Made by a program: the position numbers and the translations under genes. A model generated the notes under the pieces. The model was given only the letters and a program-made list of their open reading frames with translations, ran no database searches and was not told where the DNA came from. A DNA stretch of 64,000 bases from Candidatus Poribacteria bacterium (GTDB lineage Bacteria; Poribacteria; WGA-4E; WGA-3G): assembly GCA_964291315.2 (NCBI GenBank), contig OZ219753.1, forward strand, positions 896,001 to 960,000, in the 5' to 3' direction. Positions 41,758 through 52,666 of this stretch are shown in pieces. Positions within the stretch are counted from its first letter, which is position 1. Every line of letters begins with the position of its first letter.

Positions 41758-42354
41758 ATGAAAAAGATGAGTGTTATTTTTAGCTTGATATTGACATTCT
41801 TTTTCTGTGTCGACGTTTTGAATGGTTACAACTCACAGCTTTACAAGAAAACTTCACTCGAAAAGTTTGTCCGCTCTAGAGCGCGAGAGAGACCGTCTCC
41901 GCCGAATGCGGTCAGTGCCTACACGAAAGCATTGTCTCAAGTGGATATAGACTACCCTGAAGAAGGGCGTGGTGAAAATCATATCAAGTATGAAGGATAC
42001 GCCTACCTGAAGGCCTACGGCTGGAAAGGTACCTACCGCATATCTGCTTCAGCATACAGTTCTTCTTCGTCGCAAAGCGGTACATGGTGGTCTGGGGTGT
42101 ATAGGGAGTTCAACCCGAGGCAGACAGTGAGCTATTCGCAAAATCTCGATGACACTTATGCGATAGATTATTTCTATTATGTGCATGGAAAAGCCGCCGT
42201 AGATGGCATTCGTTACCAATCCGATCCAACGAACACTTTTTCGTCTGAAGCAGATGCTCACAATTTCAGTTACAGCTCACGTGTCACGTGGGATTGTAAA
42301 CGATCAAAATCTAGTAACATCTATAATGGTAGTCTCTGCAGAATGTGTAACTAA
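41758..42354 (+). CDS. Secreted Tyr/Ser-rich hypothetical protein with C-terminal CxxC
   Basis: AGGAGGT RBS, signal-like N-terminus, ends DCKR...LCRMCN. Confidence 0.7.
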   Translation: MKKMSVIFSLILTFFFCVDVLNGYNSQLYKKTSLEKFVRSRARERPSPPNAVSAYTKALSQVDIDYPEEGRGENHIKYEGYAYLKAYGWKGTYRISASAYSSSSSQSGTWWSGVYREFNPRQTVSYSQNLDDTYAIDYFYYVHGKAAVDGIRYQSDPTNTFSSEADAHNFSYSSRVTWDCKRSKSSNIYNGSLCRMCN

Positions 42355-42380
42355 TGGTCATAAAACGTTTTTAACTCTCC

Positions 42381-42406
42381 GGCAGGTAACCTATGGGTTA
42401 CCTGCC
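42381..42406. other. Perfect 11-bp intergenic stem-loop
   Basis: GGCAGGTAACC-tatg-GGTTACCTGCC; no U tract. Confidence 0.7.
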
Positions 42407-42420
42407 ATACAAAGAAGGTT

Positions 42421-42786
42421 GTGTTGTTTATGAAAAAATCTGTTTCAAGCATATTCAAGATTTTATCTAAAGTGTTGATCTGCCTCCTCTTGTTCAGTTT
42501 GTGGTCTCCGCTAATCGTTCCGATCCTCTTCTATTTCACTTTCGCAGACTCCACAATGAAGGCTCAGCTGCTATGGGATTGGGGCGAGTTCAATGGCATG
42601 GTGTACTCGACAGAAAAAAGTAAAGATGAGGGAATCACGCTCCATTTTGAAGATAAAGCTCTTTTAGTTGCGAAAAAAGTCAGTGACCTCGGCTTTTTAT
42701 GGATCCCTATTGGGTTCCTCTGGGCATTTTCAAGCAGGATATCTTCCTTCTTCCGACGCGATGTGGAGACACAAACACCGTTGTAG
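42421..42786 (+). CDS. Small two-TM membrane protein
   Basis: Two hydrophobic segments; AGAAGG RBS. Confidence 0.6.
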   Translation: MLFMKKSVSSIFKILSKVLICLLLFSLWSPLIVPILFYFTFADSTMKAQLLWDWGEFNGMVYSTEKSKDEGITLHFEDKALLVAKKVSDLGFLWIPIGFLWAFSSRISSFFRRDVETQTPL

Positions 42787-42942
42787 CATAGGCTGTTAGT
42801 CTGTGCTACACTCGTAGCATAGACTCTACTTGTAGCGTAGAGCGCCCACATGGGAGACAGCTGTAGCATAGACTCTACTTGTAGCATAGGTTGTTGGTAT
42901 CCTGTGCAATACGTGTAGCATGACCTGTTAGTCTGTGCTACA
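42782..42942. repeat. Cluster of GTAG-initiated REP-like imperfect palindromes
   Basis: TGTAGCATAGGCTGTTAGTCTGTGCTACA hairpin; GTAGCATAG-type units at 42783, 42814, 42832, 42863, 42881, 42915. Confidence 0.75.
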
Positions 42943-42953
42943 CAGTTTTTAAT

Positions 42954-42982
42954 TTGAATACTAAAAACAATTATGGTATAAT
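42954..42982 (+). promoter_or_regulatory. sigma70 promoter of the DUF499-DUF1156 operon
   Basis: TTGAAT, 17 bp, TATAAT preceded by TGG (extended -10). Confidence 0.7.
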
Positions 42983-43022
42983 TAACATATAACTAAAAAT
43001 TTAGATTAATAGGAACAAGATC

Positions 43023-43145
43023 GTGAGCAACCCGAACATATCAACAAAAACATCAGCGATGCCACTCTATCGCACGGGGCAGAGCAGCGCCCTCCGCTCC
43101 GGTACACAAGTCCTCACCTATTACCGCCCCCCCCCGCTTTACTAA
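43023..43145 (+). CDS. Putative 40-codon leader peptide containing a C9 tract
   Basis: AGGA RBS at 43011, GTG 43023, MSNPNISTKTSAMPLYRTGQSSALRSGTQVLTYYRPPPLY*; C run at 43127-43135. Confidence 0.55.
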   Translation: MSNPNISTKTSAMPLYRTGQSSALRSGTQVLTYYRPPPLY

Positions 43146-43254
43146 AGTTAAGTAGTTTTAAAAGCCAGCGCCCTAAACAATTCATATCAGGTTCTGATGC
43201 CTGCACGCCGTCTCCACTGTCTGTCGATAATCCGGGTCGGGGAGGGGGCCAACC

Positions 43255-46200
43255 ATGAACGCGATAGAACGGCCCTGCCGAGATATTCTCAACAGGGCGC
43301 TCGACATCTATCGCGATGCCATGCGCCCCTTCATCGTCAACACTTTGAAACAGGTGCGCGGCAGAACCGTCGAAGAAATCCTTTACGACTCACTGCCCAA
43401 ACAAGAGCTCCAATTCCAAGAACGTCTGCAAGCGAACGGCGGCGACGTTGAGGCCGTCATCGACATCAGCAATTTCCCTGCCCTCGTTAGCAGAAATTGG
43501 CACGGGGAGGCCTTTAGCCGGCGATTCAACGGCGATATGACGGTGCAAAATCACTTATACGTCATCGCGCAAGCCCGTAACAAAGCCGCACACCCTGATG
43601 GCACCGATCTTGATGCCGAATACACCCGGGCCCGCTTGCACGACATCGCCGACGTACTCGGCAGGATTAACGCGCCTGAGCAGAAACAGCGGGTTGAGGA
43701 GCTGCGGCAGGAACTCACCGGCACCGAAGAAAAAGCACAGCCGACTTCAGCAACAGGCAGCCGCAACGCATCTGCTACAGCCGCACGCCCAAGGCCCGCT
43801 GCCAATAAGAGTGGTCTCAAGCCTTGGCGCGAGGTGATCCCCCCAAATCTTGAACTCACACAAGGCACTTTTGAAGACGCAGAGCTGGCAGCGAATCTAC
43901 AAGAGGTCTACGATGGACGCGCCAGCGCAACCAGCTACGGCAACGCTGTCAGCTTCTTTAAGCAGACGCATCTCACAGCAGGTCTCCGATCGCTGCTGAC
44001 CAGCGCCCTCCAACGTCTTGCAGGCAAGGGCAGCGCACCCGTGATCCAAACCAAAACAGGATTCGGCGGCGGCAAAACGCACGGCCTCATCGCTCTTTAT
44101 CATCTCGCCAAGAGCATCGACGAACTCACACAACTCCCCGCTGATCCCGATACGGATAACTTGCGCGCCGACATTCACGCCATCGCGCAGGAATCCGGAT
44201 GGGACGGGGCGCGAAATCTGCAGCCCAAAGTCGCCGTCCTAGAAGGCACTTACCTGGCACCCACAGATCCCGAGGTGACAAAAGAGAACGGAGACCCGCT
44301 CAATACGCTCTGGGGAGTCATGGCGTACCAACTCGGCGGGCAGCCCGCATACAACCTCATCGGCGAGGCAGCGAGACGACAAGACTCCGCACCCCTCGGC
44401 GCACAATTGGACAAACTCTTTGAACACGTAGGACCTTGCGTCATCCTTATAGATGAACTGGTCGCTTACATGCTCAACTTCAACGACGACGATCTGCTCG
44501 GCGTGCATTACACCTTTATCCAAGCGCTCACCGAATCCGCACGTCGCGCAAAAAACGTCGTGGTTGTCGTAACGTTGCCAACGAGTCAACAGGAAGCAGG
44601 CGGCATCGAAGGCGAAACCATCCTCGCAACGCTTGAGGTCCGTATGGAACGCATCGAAGCCATCTGGAAACCGCTGGAGACCAGCGAATCATTTGAAATC
44701 GTACGCCGCAGACTCTTCGGCAACCAGATCGACGAAACTGAACGCGACCGCACCTGTGAGGCGTTCGTCGCCATGTACAATAGAAACCGGAAGGTATTCC
44801 CGCAAGGGGTGCACGAGCAACGTTACCTCGACCGCATGAAGGCGTGCTATCCGATCCACCCCGAGATATTTGAACGTCTCCACGCCGACTGGTCAACCAT
44901 TCACAGATTCCAACGCACGCGCGGCGTGCTGCGCCTCATGGCGAGCTGTATCAGCCGACTCTATCGAAGTAACGACAACTCGCCGCTCATCATGCCGGGG
45001 AACCTACCGCTCGACGATCCGAGCGTCACCGGCGAATTTGAGAAAATCCTGCCGGGGCGTTGGGAGGCGGTCTTCGCGGAAGCGGACAGCAATGACGGGC
45101 GCGCAGACCTCATCGACCAGCAACGAAAAGATTTCGCACAATGCGGGGGCGCGGCGCGCCGAATCGCACGAGCTGTCTTCCTCGGCAGCTGCCCCGGCGG
45201 CGCTATCCGCGGCATCGATACACCCCGCATCCTCCTCGGCACTGCACAACCGGGACACAGATCTAGCGTCTATACCGAAGCACTCACCGAAATGCGCGGC
45301 AGCCTCCACTATTTCTACAACGATGAGAATAGATACTACTTTCACACCGAAGAAAATCTCAACAAGGTCGCCATCGACCGCGCAGAGCAGATCAGCGAGG
45401 CGGAACTCCACGAACACATCGTCTCGCAAATCACGGAGGCTGTCAGAAGGCACACATCGAAACCGGTTATCTGCCCGGAGGACTTAGAGGCTGTCCCGGA
45501 CAGAGATGTGCCCCACCTTGTTATCCTGCCGCCCGATAAGCTACTGCGGAGCCGTTCCGCGGAAACCGACGAGGCAACGTCTGCAGCAGAGCGCATCCTC
45601 AAGCAGCACACCACGGGCAAACGCGTCTATCAGAATACGCCCCTCTTTCTTGCATCAAAAACAGACGATATGCGGGATCTAAAGAGCTACACGCGCGAAT
45701 ACCTCGCTTGGCACTCCATTACACAAGGTGACCAGCGCATCCGAGGTCTCAAAGATGAGCGTCTAAGGCAGGCGCAAGCGAGCCTCAGGAAAGCAGAGGA
45801 AGCTGTCCGTAGAACCATCCCAAAGGCGTGGCGATTCGCCATTGCACCGGCACAACTCGACCCGCAACATCCGGAACTTACGTTGACACCCGAACAGACG
45901 AAGGCCGCAGAGACCGGCGACATCGTGGAAGGCGCCTTGGAGGCACTCAGAACACGGGGGGCCCTCATCGGCTACGAAACCCCGGAAGAGCTCAACGCAC
46001 GCTTAACCGAATACATATGGAAGGATCAAAACCACATCAGCGTTCAGAAGGTGTGGGAAATGATGGCACAATACGTCCATATGCCCAGATTGGAAACCAG
46101 AGAAGTGCTCACAACTGCGGTTAAAGAGGGCGTGGAAAACGGAACCTTCGGATACGCAGAACGCTACGATGCCGATCAAGAAGACTACCACGGGCTGCAC

Positions 46201-46824
46201 TTTAAACAAGAGATAGCTGCCTTAACGCCCGAAGGGCTGATCGTCAAACCCGACATCGCAAGCGTTAAACCGAAACTCACACTGGCATCTCTCACACCCG
46301 TCTTGGACGAACACGTCTGGGGCACCAAACAGCCGCACATCCAGGTCGAACAGGTCCACCAGATGATGCCCGCACACTTCGACGAAGACGATCTGAAAGA
46401 GGGAAGCTTGATTGAATCGATTGAAAGAGGGGTGCCTGATGGGCAATTCGGTTACGCTACCGGAATCGCCGAAGACACCGACACCTACGAAGACCTGTTT
46501 TTCCGGCAGGCACTACCGCCAAACGTTGTAACCCTCAACGGACTGCTGATTGAACCCAGCACCGCCGCTGCCCAAAAAGAGACCGCAACCTCAGGTGCCA
46601 AACGCATCGTCGCCCGCAAAACTGTGGCAGGTGAAATTTCGCTTGACGACATAAATGACCTCCGCGAAGAGATCATCGCCCCCTTACGGGCAGACGGCGG
46701 CAACGTTAACATAGAGATTAGCATCACCGCCGATAAAGCAGAGGGGTTCTCTCCAAACATTGAACGTTCTGTCAAAGAAAACGGGGTTCAACTCAACGTT
46801 GAAGTTGAGGCTGAACCCAAATAG
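43255..46824 (+). CDS. DUF499 AAA+ ATPase with N-terminal Swt1-like HEPN domain (defence system component)
   Basis: RNKAAH (RxxxxH), LKPWREV, TGFGGGKTH Walker A, ILIDEL Walker B, YPIHPE, FQRTRGVLRLM. Confidence 0.88.
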   Translation: MNAIERPCRDILNRALDIYRDAMRPFIVNTLKQVRGRTVEEILYDSLPKQELQFQERLQANGGDVEAVIDISNFPALVSRNWHGEAFSRRFNGDMTVQNHLYVIAQARNKAAHPDGTDLDAEYTRARLHDIADVLGRINAPEQKQRVEELRQELTGTEEKAQPTSATGSRNASATAARPRPAANKSGLKPWREVIPPNLELTQGTFEDAELAANLQEVYDGRASATSYGNAVSFFKQTHLTAGLRSLLTSALQRLAGKGSAPVIQTKTGFGGGKTHGLIALYHLAKSIDELTQLPADPDTDNLRADIHAIAQESGWDGARNLQPKVAVLEGTYLAPTDPEVTKENGDPLNTLWGVMAYQLGGQPAYNLIGEAARRQDSAPLGAQLDKLFEHVGPCVILIDELVAYMLNFNDDDLLGVHYTFIQALTESARRAKNVVVVVTLPTSQQEAGGIEGETILATLEVRMERIEAIWKPLETSESFEIVRRRLFGNQIDETERDRTCEAFVAMYNRNRKVFPQGVHEQRYLDRMKACYPIHPEIFERLHADWSTIHRFQRTRGVLRLMASCISRLYRSNDNSPLIMPGNLPLDDPSVTGEFEKILPGRWEAVFAEADSNDGRADLIDQQRKDFAQCGGAARRIARAVFLGSCPGGAIRGIDTPRILLGTAQPGHRSSVYTEALTEMRGSLHYFYNDENRYYFHTEENLNKVAIDRAEQISEAELHEHIVSQITEAVRRHTSKPVICPEDLEAVPDRDVPHLVILPPDKLLRSRSAETDEATSAAERILKQHTTGKRVYQNTPLFLASKTDDMRDLKSYTREYLAWHSITQGDQRIRGLKDERLRQAQASLRKAEEAVRRTIPKAWRFAIAPAQLDPQHPELTLTPEQTKAAETGDIVEGALEALRTRGALIGYETPEELNARLTEYIWKDQNHISVQKVWEMMAQYVHMPRLETREVLTTAVKEGVENGTFGYAERYDADQEDYHGLHFKQEIAALTPEGLIVKPDIASVKPKLTLASLTPVLDEHVWGTKQPHIQVEQVHQMMPAHFDEDDLKEGSLIESIERGVPDGQFGYATGIAEDTDTYEDLFFRQALPPNVVTLNGLLIEPSTAAAQKETATSGAKRIVARKTVAGEISLDDINDLREEIIAPLRADGGNVNIEISITADKAEGFSPNIERSVKENGVQLNVEVEAEPK

Positions 46825-46839
46825 AGGGGAGCGACCCGA

Positions 46840-49623
46840 ATGAACCGTGCCAAGAAACTGATTGAGGTCGACCTCCCCTTAGACCACATCAACCGTGAAT
46901 CCTCGCGTGAAAAGTCAATTCGCCACGGACACCCTTGCACACTGCACCTCTGGTGGGCCCGCAGACCGCTCGCTGCCTGTCGAGCCGTCCTCTTTGCCAG
47001 CATGGTCGACGATCCCGGATCCTATCTGGATGAACCACAGGCGCAAGCCGAACGCGAGAGACTTCATGCGCTTATCAGGCAACTCGTGAAGTGGGAGAAC
47101 ACCACCAACGAAGGCGTTTTGGCGAAGGCGCGTTATGAGATTGCCCGGTGCATCGCCCGCTCGCGCGGAGAGACCGCACCCACAGAGTCAGAAGCGGTCT
47201 TGCGCTACCTGGCTGAAAACGCACCAACGGTCTACGACCCGTTCTGTGGCGGCGGCTCCATTCCGCTGGAGGCGCAACGACTCGGGCTCCCCGCGCGCGC
47301 CTCAGACCTCAATCCGGTGGCAGTGCTCATCAACAAGGCGTTGATGGAGCTGCCGCCTCAGTGCCACGGTCAACCGCCCGTGAATCCGATTGCAGACTCG
47401 TTGAAGGGGTGGCGCGGCACCTCCGGACTGGCAAACGACATCCGCTACTACGGACGTTGGATGCGTGAAGAGGCACACACCCGCATCGGACACCTCTATC
47501 CGAAGGCGAAGCTGCCAGACGGAACCGAGGCCACCGTGATCGCGTGGGTATGGTCGCGCACAGTGCAATGCGCCAACCCGGCGTGCCGGCTCACCATACC
47601 GCTAATCAAAACCTTTCAGATCTCTAAAAAAAACAGAAACAGGCACTGGACCCGCCCTGTCGTCGACGCAACATCGCGAACGCTCTCCTTCACTGTTCAA
47701 GATCACCGTAACGGAGTGCCAGATACGGGCACCGTGAGCCGCCACGGAGTTGTCTGCCCTGCGTGTGGTGCCTCTGCCAAATTAGAATACGTCCGGGAAC
47801 AGGCAAGAGCCGGCAAGATGGGAGAAATCATGCACTCTATAGTCGCGGAAGGCGACCGGAGGAAACTTTTCGTCTCTCCAACGGAGGCCCACATCCAGAT
47901 CGCCCACTCTGCTGCGCCGGAGTGGAAACCGACAAGCCGGCTGCCAGAGCAGGCGCTGGGATTTATGATCCAGAACTACGGTGTGACGGAGTGGCACGAG
48001 CTCTTCACCGCGCGGCAGCTCGCCGCCTTGAGCACCTTCAGCGATCTGCTGTCAGAGGTTCGGCACGCTATTCTACAAGACGGGGGGACAGAGACATATG
48101 CGGACACCCTCTGCACCTATCTATCCCTCGCCGTCGGGAAAATGGCTGCCAGTGGAAACAGGGGTACAATGTGGGAAAACACGCGTGAAGTGATCGCTCA
48201 CTCTTTTGCGATCCAGGGAATTGGCATGACTTGGGATTTTGCGGAAGCCAACCCGTTCTCCGCCTCAACGCGAAACTGGATGGGGCATATAGAGCTCATA
48301 GCGAAAGCCGTGGAACGGCTGCCGGCTGCCGCCAACAGAAGCGAAGTGTATCAGGCGGATGCCGCCACAACGCCACACGCAGCGGATGCCCCCATCGTCG
48401 TCACGGATCCCCCGTACTACGACTACATCGGGTATGCGGATCTTGCCGATTTTTTCTACGTTTGGCTCAGGAAACCGCTGCGAGGCATCTATCCCGAGCT
48501 GTTCGCCGGCATGGCAACCCCCAAAGCAGAAGAAATCGTTGCAAATCGGCACCGCTTCGAGAACCCGCGCCTCCGTTTTGAGGAACGTTTGCGTGAGACG
48601 CTAAAGCGGCTCCGCGAACGTTGCTCCGGTGAATACCCGACCGCCATCTTCTACGCCTACAAACAGCAAGAGGAGGAGCGCGGCGGCAGAGCCTCCACGG
48701 GCTGGGAAACGATGCTCACGGCGCTCATTTCCACCGGCTACCAGATAGTCGGCACGTGGCCCATGCGCACAGAAAGTACTACCAGATTACGCGCGCAAAA
48801 CTCAAATGCCATCGCCTCTTCTGTGGTTCTGGTTTGCCGGCCGCGCCCCGACACCGCGCAAAATATCGGGTTGGGCGCGTTCCTCAACGCCCTTAGAGCT
48901 GAAATGCCCCCTGCGCTCGACCGACTCACGCGCGAGGCACACATCGCGCCCGTGGACCTTGCGCAGGCCGCCATCGGCCCGGGCATGGAGGTGTATTCGC
49001 GCTACAAGAGCGTCAAAACCACCCGAAACGGGAAACTAGAGACGGTGTCTGTGCGAGAGGCGCTCATCAAAATCAACGAGGAAATCGACAGATACCACGC
49101 CGAGCAGGAAGGCGAGTTCGACTCACATACCCGTTTCTGCCTTGCATGGTTCAAGCAGCACGGGTTCGACGCGGCCGCCTACGGCAGTGCGGAGGTGCTG
49201 GCGCGCGCAAACAACATCAGCATCGATGCGCTGCATGGGCGGGCCCTCACGGCTGAAAGAGGGAGCGTGCAGCTGTTACCGCTTGGCGCTTACGACGACA
49301 ACCATCCGAATGCGAAGTTGTTGCTGTCGGAGATAACCACGTGGGAGGCGTGCCATCTGATGGCATACCACCTCAACCCCAGCAATGAAGAGGGTAGGGG
49401 TATAGACGGCGCAGCAGAAGTGGGGCGCGCAATGCACAGCAACGAAACCTCTGACCCGATTGGATCCGTAGAACGGCTCGCCCGAATCCTCTATAGTCAT
49501 TACGATCGGCAGGGCAACGCTGAGAACGCTGTGCTTTTCAATACGCTTGTGACCTCTTGGGACAGGATCGATCAACAAATCCACGATGCACAGCAAGGTT
49601 CGTTGTTGCATGGTTCTCCGTGA
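46840..49623 (+). CDS. DUF1156 adenine-specific DNA methyltransferase with Zn ribbon
   Basis: KKLIEVDLPL...LHLWWARRPL, DPFCGGGSIPLE, CANPAC/CPAC, TDPPYY. Confidence 0.9.
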   Translation: MNRAKKLIEVDLPLDHINRESSREKSIRHGHPCTLHLWWARRPLAACRAVLFASMVDDPGSYLDEPQAQAERERLHALIRQLVKWENTTNEGVLAKARYEIARCIARSRGETAPTESEAVLRYLAENAPTVYDPFCGGGSIPLEAQRLGLPARASDLNPVAVLINKALMELPPQCHGQPPVNPIADSLKGWRGTSGLANDIRYYGRWMREEAHTRIGHLYPKAKLPDGTEATVIAWVWSRTVQCANPACRLTIPLIKTFQISKKNRNRHWTRPVVDATSRTLSFTVQDHRNGVPDTGTVSRHGVVCPACGASAKLEYVREQARAGKMGEIMHSIVAEGDRRKLFVSPTEAHIQIAHSAAPEWKPTSRLPEQALGFMIQNYGVTEWHELFTARQLAALSTFSDLLSEVRHAILQDGGTETYADTLCTYLSLAVGKMAASGNRGTMWENTREVIAHSFAIQGIGMTWDFAEANPFSASTRNWMGHIELIAKAVERLPAAANRSEVYQADAATTPHAADAPIVVTDPPYYDYIGYADLADFFYVWLRKPLRGIYPELFAGMATPKAEEIVANRHRFENPRLRFEERLRETLKRLRERCSGEYPTAIFYAYKQQEEERGGRASTGWETMLTALISTGYQIVGTWPMRTESTTRLRAQNSNAIASSVVLVCRPRPDTAQNIGLGAFLNALRAEMPPALDRLTREAHIAPVDLAQAAIGPGMEVYSRYKSVKTTRNGKLETVSVREALIKINEEIDRYHAEQEGEFDSHTRFCLAWFKQHGFDAAAYGSAEVLARANNISIDALHGRALTAERGSVQLLPLGAYDDNHPNAKLLLSEITTWEACHLMAYHLNPSNEEGRGIDGAAEVGRAMHSNETSDPIGSVERLARILYSHYDRQGNAENAVLFNTLVTSWDRIDQQIHDAQQGSLLHGSP

Positions 49624-49625
49624 GC

Positions 49626-49703
49626 TTGTGCATAGCCGGACTTGTAGTATAGGATGTTGGTTTCCTGTGCAATACTTGTAACATAACCTGCCAACCTGTG
49701 CCT
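49626..49703. repeat. Degenerate direct copy of the 42861-42942 REP-like repeat
   Basis: ACTTGTAGTATAGGATGTTGGTTTCCTGTGCAATACTTGTA versus ACTTGTAGCATAGGTTGTTGGTATCCTGTGCAATACGTGTA. Confidence 0.75.
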
Positions 49704-49714
49704 CCGTTTTAACG

Positions 49715-50074
49715 ATGAACACCTCTCTATTTCGCATCCAGTACCAATTAGAGCAGGGGCGGGTCCCCTTCACCCGGGAGACAGTCTCGAATCTCCCGAA
49801 GCGGCGCTGCGGCCTCTATGCCCTCTGGTTAACCGATGCGATAGGCGGATATGAGCGTCTCTACGTTGGGGTCTCAACGACGTGTATCCGCCGGCGCTTG
49901 CTCCAACATCTCTCCGATGAACAGAATCCAGAGCTTCGGATACAACTGCGCACCTTCGGGGAACTCATCCATTTTTCTGTCGTTTTTACTGAGGATCCGA
50001 AGCAGACGTTGGCATTAGAGACGGAATTAATTCGCAGTTGGCAACCGGAGACGAATCGGCATAAATTGCGTTAG
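49715..50074 (+). CDS. Small stand-alone GIY-YIG nuclease
   Basis: GLYAL...LYVGVS...IRRRLLQH...ALETELI...PETN. Confidence 0.8.
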   Translation: MNTSLFRIQYQLEQGRVPFTRETVSNLPKRRCGLYALWLTDAIGGYERLYVGVSTTCIRRRLLQHLSDEQNPELRIQLRTFGELIHFSVVFTEDPKQTLALETELIRSWQPETNRHKLR

Positions 50075-50383: not shown

Positions 50384-51421
50384 ATGCGAGATCAACAAGA
50401 ATCTAAGCGGCATAGCCAATACGATACTGTTTCCAAGGCGATTATCCATCAAAACCCACAGGATTGGACGGAGTTCGCCCTCGGAACCACAGACGTGGAG
50501 GCGATCCGGGTTTTAGAGACCGAGCAGCCGACCGTCCAATCAAACAGAGCGGATAGTTTCATAGAGGTGCGTGTGGGTGGTGAGCCTGCGATTGTGCATC
50601 TTGAGATCCAGACGCGTGACAGCGGCGCGGTGCCGATGCCGTATCGTATGGCGGGCTACATCGGCAGGGGCATAGAGCAGTTTCAGTTGCCGATTTACTC
50701 ACATGTGATCTACCTGCATCCGCGTGCGGGCCGGCGGGATCCTGGAGCGTATGTTCAATCGTTTCCTGGGTATGAGGTTCGTATCGGCTACAAGGTGATT
50801 CGTCTGTATGATATAGAGGGTTCTCATTTTCTGGATTCGGGTGTGAAGGGTTTGATCCCGTTTACGCCGTTGATGCGTCCGTCGGGTGATGCGTCTGGTG
50901 CTGCGTGGCTTCGGCGGTGCGTATCGGTTGCGGAGTCAGTGTATGCGGAGAGTGCGTCAAAGGGAGACTATCTGGCAGATTTAGCGATATTGAGCGGTTT
51001 GATATTTGAGTATTCGTCGATTCGTGAGGCGATAATGGAGGCGATCATGCAAGAGTCATCGGTTATTCAACATTTTCTTCAGCAAGGCATAGAACGCGGT
51101 CTTGAGCAAGGCATAGAACGCGGTAGAGAGGAGGGTCTTGAGCAAGGCATCGAGCAAGGCATAGAGCGCGGTAGAGAAGAGGGTCTTGAGCAAGGCATCG
51201 AGCGGGGTGCCCGAGAGAGTCTGATAGAAGGCATTCTTGAGACCTTGGAGCTGCGTTTCAACGCTAGCGCCTTGTCGCAGGTTGCGTCTGCTCTGGGGCG
51301 TGTTCAGTCTCTGCCGCGTCTCAAGGCACTCCGCCGTGAGGCACTGCAGACAGCGAGCCTCGGTGCATTCCAAGAGGCATTGGAGAGGAGCCGAGACAGC
51401 AACGGGAACGCCTCGTCTTAA
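50384..51421 (+). CDS. Rpn/YhgA-like PD-(D/E)xK nuclease (putative transposase family), copy 1
   Basis: YD.VSK, RADSF...HLEIQT, MPYRMAGY, EQGIERG repeats, LELRF C-terminal helix. Confidence 0.85.
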   Translation: MRDQQESKRHSQYDTVSKAIIHQNPQDWTEFALGTTDVEAIRVLETEQPTVQSNRADSFIEVRVGGEPAIVHLEIQTRDSGAVPMPYRMAGYIGRGIEQFQLPIYSHVIYLHPRAGRRDPGAYVQSFPGYEVRIGYKVIRLYDIEGSHFLDSGVKGLIPFTPLMRPSGDASGAAWLRRCVSVAESVYAESASKGDYLADLAILSGLIFEYSSIREAIMEAIMQESSVIQHFLQQGIERGLEQGIERGREEGLEQGIEQGIERGREEGLEQGIERGARESLIEGILETLELRFNASALSQVASALGRVQSLPRLKALRREALQTASLGAFQEALERSRDSNGNASS

Positions 51422-51586
51422 TGCGGATGTGGCAGAGCCTGCTAGTTTCTGCTGTAGGTTCAGTATCTGTGCTTTGTGGTATGGTTTGCTACTCTATTTC
51501 TTTGATTTTTGCGGTTTGTATGTGGTAAATTATACTATTAACTCAGTAGTGCGAACAGAAAGGATAGCAGGAGCATTCCAGGGCGT

Positions 51587-52666
51587 ATGAGAGATCAACA
51601 ACAGTCAAGTGTTAAGCGGCATAGCCAATACGATACTGTTTCCAAGGCGATTATCCATCAAAACCCACAGGACTGGATGGAGTTCGCCCTCGGCACGGCG
51701 GATGTGGAGGCGATCCGGGTTTTAGAGACCGAGCAGCCGACCGTCCAATCAAACAGAGCGGATAGCTTCATAGAGGTGCGTGTGGGTGGTGAGCCTGCGA
51801 TTGTGCATTTGGAGATACAGACGCGGGATAGCGGCACTGTGCCGATGCAGTATCGTATGGCGGGTTACATCGGCAGGGGCATAGAGCAGTTTCAACTGCC
51901 GATTTACTCACATGTGATCTACCTGCACCCGCGTGCGGGCCGGCGGGATCCTGGAGCGTATGTTCAATCGTTTCCTGGGTATGAGGTTCGTATCGGCTAC
52001 AAGGTGATCCGTCTGTATGATATAGATGGTTCTCATTTTCTGGATTCGGGTGTGAAGGGTTTGATCCCGTTTACGCCGTTGATGCGTCCGTCGGGTGATG
52101 CGTCTGGTGCTGCGTGGCTTCGGCGGTGCGTATCGGTTGCGGAGTCAGTGTATGCGGAGAGTGCGTCAAAGGGAGACTATCTGGCAGATTTAGCGATATT
52201 GAGCGGTTTGATATTTGAGTATTCGTCGATTCGTGAGGCGATAATGGAGGCGATCATGCAAGAGTCATCGGTTATTCAACATTTTCTTCAGCAAGGCATA
52301 GAACGCGGTCTTGAGCAAGGCATAGAACGCGGTAGAGAGGAGGGTCTTGAGCAAGGCATCGAGCAAGGCATAGAACGCGGTAGAGAAGAGGGTCTTGAGC
52401 AAGGCATAGAACGCGGTAGAGAAGAGGGTCTTGAGCAAGGCATAGAGCGGGGTGCCCGAGAGAGTCTGATAGAAGGCATTCTTGAGACCTTGGAGCTGCG
52501 TTTCAACGCTAGCGCCTTGTCGCAGGTTGCGTCTGTTCTTGGGCGTATTCAGTCTCTGCCGCGTCTCAAGGCACTCCGCCGTGCGGCACTGCAGACAGCG
52601 AGTCTCGCTGCATTCCAAGAGGCATTGGAGAGGAGCCGAGACAGCAACGGGAACGTCTCGGCTTAA
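51587..52666 (+). CDS. Rpn/YhgA-like PD-(D/E)xK nuclease, copy 2
   Basis: Near-identical to copy 1, with one extra 12-aa repeat unit. Confidence 0.85.
   Translation: MRDQQQSSVKRHSQYDTVSKAIIHQNPQDWMEFALGTADVEAIRVLETEQPTVQSNRADSFIEVRVGGEPAIVHLEIQTRDSGTVPMQYRMAGYIGRGIEQFQLPIYSHVIYLHPRAGRRDPGAYVQSFPGYEVRIGYKVIRLYDIDGSHFLDSGVKGLIPFTPLMRPSGDASGAAWLRRCVSVAESVYAESASKGDYLADLAILSGLIFEYSSIREAIMEAIMQESSVIQHFLQQGIERGLEQGIERGREEGLEQGIEQGIERGREEGLEQGIERGREEGLEQGIERGARESLIEGILETLELRFNASALSQVASVLGRIQSLPRLKALRRAALQTASLAAFQEALERSRDSNGNVSA

Follow-up and report, generated by a model that had tools for sequence, protein, structure and literature searches.

In the pil1 and pil3 pilus operons of Streptococcus gallolyticus, slippage at GCAGA repeats alters a leader open reading frame (ORF), and longer leaders switch the operon on, as described in the accessible part of Danne et al. 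2014 (PMC3894217). Homopolymer tracts drive phase variation of type III mod genes and of the poly-G genes of Campylobacter (excerpts of PMC3711429 and PMC11955535). In a third group, the upstream ORFs (uORFs) tnaC, speFL, cruR and mgtL govern Rho-dependent attenuation and respond to metabolites by ribosome stalling (PMC12360218, in excerpt). The Hma defence system was described by Payne et al. 2021 (PMC8565338, in excerpt) and in Halomonas (PMC11232893), where the accessible text shows antiphage activity for HmaA only.

We analysed a leader and the operon behind it in a 64,000-nucleotide stretch of Candidatus Poribacteria DNA (the window, to which unlabelled coordinates refer). As in pil1/pil3, slippage of a repeat within the leader would shift its frame and length and leave the downstream genes intact; here the repeat is a C homopolymer rather than GCAGA, and the genes encode a defence-type ATPase-methylase pair rather than pili. 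pil1 acts through an intrinsic terminator, whereas none was detected here on the + strand from 43136 to 43255 and the long leader frame ends on a start codon. The locus was therefore not classed as a pil1-type member despite the similar input. Among its sister leaders, 43 of 82 are followed by a strictly defined terminator-like hairpin (3.9 expected). The module also recurs at dozens of unrelated genes, unlike that of pil1/pil3. With homopolymer-switched restriction-modification genes the locus shares a C/G tract of at least 8, a predicted ON state at one of three lengths and DNA methyltransferases as targets, and the classical in-gene form is present in this genome too, at 28 places. Since the frameshift here sits in the leader, a single tract would gate a whole operon without truncating a protein. 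As in the uORF attenuators, the position of the ribosome on the leader ORF would decide downstream expression; unlike tnaC, speFL, cruR and mgtL, the exit point would be set by a heritable change in length. The accessible parts of PMC3711429, PMC11955535, PMC12360218 and PMC12721329 mention no homopolymer leader coupled to a gene start, and a literature search, largely outside subscription journals, found no phase variation in Poribacteria, no homopolymer-leader translational coupling and no phase-variable Hma.

The operon lies on the + strand. Its first gene, hmaC (43255-46824), encodes a protein of 1189 aa with a HEPN_Swt1-like domain and a DUF499 AAA+ ATPase (Pfam PF18731 and PF04465; PADLOC HmaC, E 1e-224). 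It is followed by hmaB (46840-49623), for a DUF1156 DNA methyltransferase of 927 aa (Pfam; PADLOC HmaB, E 9e-280), and by a gene for a small GIY-YIG-like protein of 119 aa (49715-50074), assigned through a weak Pfam match (E 4e-4) under the family cut-off. HmaB and HmaC are adjacent as in the Hma system, from which the locus differs by the absence of HmaA, by the additional N-terminal Swt1-like HEPN domain of HmaC and by the GIY-YIG-like gene. The profile of HmaA, a Snf2 helicase, matched five places in the genome, none of them within the window; the strongest match (C4:1515807) adjoins another hmaB-hmaC pair, and a complete hmaA-B-C lies elsewhere in the genome. The operon, with two of the three Hma genes, is a partial system not counted as Hma because HmaA is missing, and its gene family suggests a function in defence. 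A paralogous HEPN-HmaC gene with neither hmaB nor a tract is found at L176 (C4:13791-17094 of genome G000), and the same HEPN domain starts many other proteins across the genus. Short dispersed palindromic repeats of the TGTAGCATAG type flank the operon on both sides (42782-42945 and 49640-49700); the left cluster has 234 BLAST matches in the genome. Further downstream, at 50384-52666, lie two near-identical tandem genes with repeated GIEQG/GLEQG C-terminal units, for which Pfam gave only Yae1_N and which we presume to resemble Rpn-type nucleases.

Upstream of hmaC, a sigma70-type promoter, TTGAAT-17-(TG)TATAAT (42954-42982, + strand), matches the consensus at 10 of 12 positions and carries the TG extension; a promoter-like scan is by itself not significant, because it found one site and shuffles expect 1.1. 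The ribosome-binding site (RBS) AGGA (43011-43014) stands 8 nt before GTG 43023, which opens a leader ORF that runs through a tract of nine C (43127-43135), the candidate variable element. As sequenced, this ORF (43023-43145) comprises 40 codons, ends in YYRPPP before a TAA stop and is predicted to be OFF. A simple repeat thus lies inside a leader ORF, between promoter and operon. Re-checking bore out every position given by the original prediction for promoter, AGGA, GTG and C9. A sequencing artefact in the tract is unlikely, as contigs from one run (X1) give C9 without differences and the flanks are common to several genomes. An Rfam scan of 42000-44000 returned four matches, all far under the gathering score. 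Homologous leader starts of the form V-x-N/D-R-x-I are present in the related genomes G066, G017 and G008. Over eight leader starts pS was 0.64 and pN 0.31, values not used as evidence because the set had been picked on those very residues.

We then computed the reading frames for variant tract lengths. With C6, C9 or C12 the leader stops at TAA 43143-43145, and with C5, C8, C11 or C14 at TAG 43153-43155. Only with C7, C10 or C13 does the third frame (43136-43258) stay open, adding 40 codons up to TGA 43256-43258, which overlaps hmaC ATG 43255 as ATGA. Repeat number thus alters leader length: 40 codons for C9, 43 for C8 and 78 for C10. These computed variants reproduced each of the frames that had been claimed from the sequence. 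At this single locus the ATGA ending carries little weight (P about 0.4), as a fraction of 0.38-0.41 of spacer shuffles yield ATGA too; among control genes starting with ATGA, 10 of 72, hmaC included, have at least 40 open codons in the overlap frame.

The frame arrangement recurs in a second species. In G066 an orthologous operon encodes HmaC (71% identical), then HmaB, then a small third protein, and its leader has TTGAAT-17-TATAAT, AGGA-8-GTG, a homologous leader start, a C14 tract and stops at +16 and +20. The third frame there runs for 80 codons and again ends on ATGA (shuffle P 0.03-0.04), so that upstream stop and downstream start are co-located as ATGA in two species for this operon. 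The spacer measures 240 nt in G066 versus 120 here and is unalignable past its first part, and the G066 leader is likewise predicted OFF as assembled. The frame logic is thus conserved in the ortholog, which lends independent support to a leader switch and is stronger evidence than the local ATGA ending. Tracts are rare before other homologues: among the 30 best N-terminal homologue loci, two carry at least 7 C, namely the window locus and G066. A first sample of orthologs (35 loci in 41 genomes, G066 excluded) contained, apart from that of the window, no tract of C7 or more in the 320 nt upstream, eight additional named loci contained none, and G009 has the same three genes, the small third gene included, free of a tract. 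The hmaB gene of G066 is split by two ORFs that resemble an insertion sequence (L161:12424-16492, judged by sequence). A second leader in that genome, with C16 (L161:5318), lies 3.3 kb upstream of the hmaC leader, before a gene for a probable secreted protein.

The original prediction had also proposed looking for other C-tract leaders with one frame ending in ATGA. Starting from 89 distinct tract-plus-box sites (23 in this genome, 66 in relatives' loci), we dropped three in long ORFs and tested 86; expectations came from dinucleotide shuffles, and similar sequences were also clustered. An ATG or GTG leader ORF of 30-62 codons, a window fixed like the other class thresholds after inspecting the data, enters the tract in 85 of the 86 sites (15.9 expected); among the 17 clusters it does so in 16 (3.0 expected). 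In 53 sites two frames close within 45 nt, early stops being partly built in by a search pattern that contained TAAGT, and in 50 of these the third is open for at least 120 nt (14.0 expected). Both features, leader ORF and open third frame, are therefore robust in the class. In 55 of 59 class leaders the longest frame extends beyond the hairpin. Its end lies no more than 15 nt from the start of the next gene in 15 of 79 (4.5 expected) and, once similar sequences are clustered, in 5 of 14 (1.7 expected), counts that depend on heuristic gene starts, several of them wrong, and on kin that are not independent. In four members it ends exactly on ATGA (1.2 expected). Terminator read-through is thus the commonest output of the class and coupling a minority one. 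Tract lengths range from 7 to 18, and 16 of 82 leaders are ON as assembled (p 0.007 versus one third, with kin not independent). We conclude that the genus carries a module consisting of a promoter, a leader ORF, a C7-18 tract and a 16-bp box of fixed layout with stops in two frames, and that the element in the window is one of many in the lineage.

Long tracts are over-represented in this genome. In its 4.4 Mb, C/G runs of exactly 6 number 510, those of exactly 7 number 47 and those of at least 8 number 65; runs of at least 8 thus outnumber runs of 7, which exceeds chance. Thirty C/G tracts sit between two long frames, 28 of them out of frame in a way that a tract of 7 or 10 would mend. The five split families, of which one or two representatives each were scanned, are all DNA methyltransferases; the coding strand carries the tract as G in four of these and as C in one. 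Most remaining tracts are intergenic, with a common downstream box. TTA-C8 has 45 occurrences in this genome and 32 in one relative; each of the 39 other genomes searched has 0-5. The tract-plus-box pattern was found in 38 of 65 genus genomes and 51 of 176 phylum genomes, with no matches for a reversed control. Exact-pattern scans of metagenome and genome collections gave no matches in either, and a protein scan of metagenomes gave one distant locus. Several side observations concern individual loci of G000. Five methyltransferase families there (Eco57I-like and type III mod-like; for example L036, L037, L038, L039 and L040) share AAGC-G8/9-TAAT flanks. The leader module also precedes stand-alone DUF1156 methylase genes at L041, L042 and L043 (C1:9495, C4:2402822 and C4:3144572), whose leaders have a strong terminator (-24 kcal/mol) and a long frame that ends on ATGA at one locus and 26 nt into the gene at the other two. 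At C4:330232, C4:775135, C4:2769968 and L102 the ON frame is the downstream gene's own, giving an in-frame fusion as yet another kind of output.

We examined by folding prediction how the start of hmaC might be controlled. Its Shine-Dalgarno (SD) region is G-rich (GGGGAGGGGG, 43239-43248, + strand) and predicted to be occluded: the opening energy of 22.2 kcal/mol was the maximum among 150 genes sampled from 462 eligible ones (median 7.8, 90th percentile 12.3 kcal/mol; hmaC itself included). The original prediction had noted that GGGGAGGGGG is complementary to the C tract, and in the full leader the two are indeed predicted to pair (0.88). This pairing proved unnecessary for occlusion and is not conserved in the ortholog. 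The opening energy rises only slightly with tract length, from 20.1 (C8) to 22.4 kcal/mol (C10), and is still 18.7-18.9 kcal/mol when the tract is cut away; in G066 it is only 7.9 kcal/mol. We therefore rejected tract-SD complementarity as the switch itself. Folding of the whole leader was no better than that of shuffles (z 0.08).

Allelic variation was followed in contigs of four runs from one study (X1-X4), of which X1 may be the source sample; contigs lose rare variants. In X1 the C9 allele was recovered unaltered at depth 552 and a second allele lay nearby; contig breaks at the 5' edge of the tract suggest that more than one tract length is present. In X2 the tract is two C longer in one contig (C11, predicted to be OFF), whose depth is 897 against about 3050 for hmaC itself; the main X2 allele has 43160-43249 replaced. 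The X3 allele lacks 18 nt of the leader, in frame, so that the leader frame is retained with no early stop (12 of its 14 substitutions being visible), and has GGGGAGGTGT at the position of the G-rich SD. In X4, 211 letters replace 43076-43255, and 264 nt (88 codons) lead in phase from GTG to the overlapping TGA. The sequence downstream of the box thus varies among the alleles. The tract variability originally predicted is consistent with the C11 contig, seen in one run of four, and with the C14 of the ortholog; the ON lengths C7 and C10 do not appear among the contigs listed for X1-X4, of whose indel rows all but one were visible.

These observations lead us to favour, with somewhat better than even confidence, a phase-variable leader switch that works through slippage, translational coupling and unmasking of the hmaC RBS, with the sequenced allele OFF. 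We infer leader translation, RBS occlusion (from the folding prediction), coupling and the rate of switching, and combine them as follows. Replication slippage would alter the length of the C tract. Ribosomes would initiate at GTG 43023 and traverse the tract; at two of three lengths (C8, C9, C11 and so on) a stop codon in the 16-bp box would release them from the RNA within 20 nt. The remaining 100 nt could then fold over the G-rich RBS of hmaC, keeping hmaC, hmaB and the GIY-YIG-like gene OFF or low, probably aided by Rho acting on untranslated C-rich RNA. With C7, C10 or C13, ribosomes would instead continue as far as the TGA that overlaps the hmaC ATG, unfolding the RNA on the way and starting again at hmaC, which would be the ON state. 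MutS, MutL and Rho are all encoded in the genome. The core of the original prediction, in which tract length sets the leader frame, the frame gates the operon and the present allele is OFF, is supported by the class statistics, the G066 ortholog and the C11 allele; the coupling proposed there is a probable output, Rho polarity a less likely one.

Rho polarity perhaps contributes to the output of such a switch. It may add to coupling or replace it, because Rho is present and both spacers are C-rich and G-poor (C30/G19% here, C31/G14% over 203 nt in G066). As a replacement, which we regard as unlikely though deserving of attention, the same slippage would operate, an early leader stop would expose the C-rich, G-poor RNA to Rho, the long frame would need to do no more than cover this RNA, and the ATGA would be incidental. 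Such a course would fit the lack of RBS occlusion in G066, the common class pattern of covering a terminator (the 55 of 59 leaders above), and uORF-controlled Rho termination, which is well known according to the accessible text of PMC12360218. It fits less well with a spacer of only about 80 nt from box to SD here, with a frame that ends exactly on ATGA in both species and with the unusually buried hmaC RBS of this locus.

It is quite improbable, in our estimation, that the tract is largely fixed in DNA and that an ON product arises from slippage of RNA polymerase, or from ribosomal frameshifting or stalling on CCC codons, with low or condition-dependent output in place of heritable switching. 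The strong OFF bias of the assemblies (16 of 82 leaders ON, 2 of 30 intragenic tracts in frame) and the presence of MutS and MutL would agree with a fixed tract. So would the polyproline and RAPP-like arrest motifs that act in other uORFs, CruR being the example in the excerpt of PMC12360218. A single programmed ribosomal shift is nevertheless unlikely, because leaders do not all call for the same shift: among 50 that have two early stops, 26 require an additional C, 17 require one C less and 7 require no change. Tract length, moreover, varies from 7 to 18 between loci, a C11 contig exists beside C9-type contigs, and four methylase families carry G, not C, on the coding strand, all of which speaks against this reading.

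A decayed copy of a portable leader module, its terminator lost and hmaC expressed or silent whatever the tract length, seems very improbable. It would account for the terminator-free spacer, the local ATGA P of about 0.4, the differences past the box among X1-X4 and the orthologues elsewhere that need no such leader; in the second species, however, the frame stays open through 80 codons up to ATGA, and the X3 and X4 alleles keep phase.

The remaining alternatives, like a further extension of the switch, concern the box itself. In the window it reads CTTTAC-N6-TAAG (43137-43152, + strand) with a TAG behind it (to 43155), providing the stops TAA 43143, TAA 43149 and TAG 43153 in two frames. Across the class, the spacer of CTTYAC-N6-TAAG measures 6 nt in each of the 82 leaders, of 86, that allowed alignment, although spacers of 3-9 were allowed in the search, and this pseudo-palindromic motif is conserved beyond what stop codons require. 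The genome holds 26 copies, 10 after a C tract, 7 directly before the G tract of one methylase family and 9 tract-free, against a background of 7-16 copies for other spacers. The seven in-gene copies lie in the coding sequence of that methylase family, in the orientation opposite to the tract, and cannot serve as stops, which leaves room for a role in DNA binding. In four other methylase families the tracts are flanked by shared CTTATC-N3-GATTA-like sequence, on either coding strand. We took the box to resemble integron and dif core sites and rejected an identity with them, as many copies lack GTT. A precedent for an sRNA acting on such a repeat is tlpB, where RepG reportedly targets a variable G-repeat in a leader. 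Least probable of all is that the box is a repressor or activator site, with the tract as a spacer or sRNA target and the leader ORF incidental: the pseudo-palindrome and its invariant spacing would suit such a site, but it would leave 85 of 86 leader ORFs and 50 of 53 open third frames unexplained, and with the promoter 145 nt upstream the tract does not lie between -35 and -10. Our initial reading of the tract as a promoter spacer failed likewise, since no consensus promoter lies closer than the one ending 145 nt upstream, and almost every class member has a leader ORF. Returning to the slippage switch, one may speculate further, at a probability that we consider distinctly low, that tract and box form a portable contingency cassette. 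Its own trans-acting protein would bind the box and drive or gate changes in tract length, and the lineage would use three outputs (terminator read-through, translational coupling as at this locus, and in-gene frameshift) to randomise the state of dozens of defence, methylase and surface genes.

A homopolymer leader thus seems to control a defence-type operon by bringing ribosomes to a buried start, with no terminator apparently involved. The module, of which this control would be one output, is present in 51 of the 176 genomes searched from this uncultured phylum. The leader, at 300 bp, is small enough for a direct test in E. coli. If the proposed switch is true, most cells of these symbionts would have their methylase and defence genes OFF, and a minority, at random, would have them ON. 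Gene-level annotation would miss this form of bet-hedging, since the genes are all intact.
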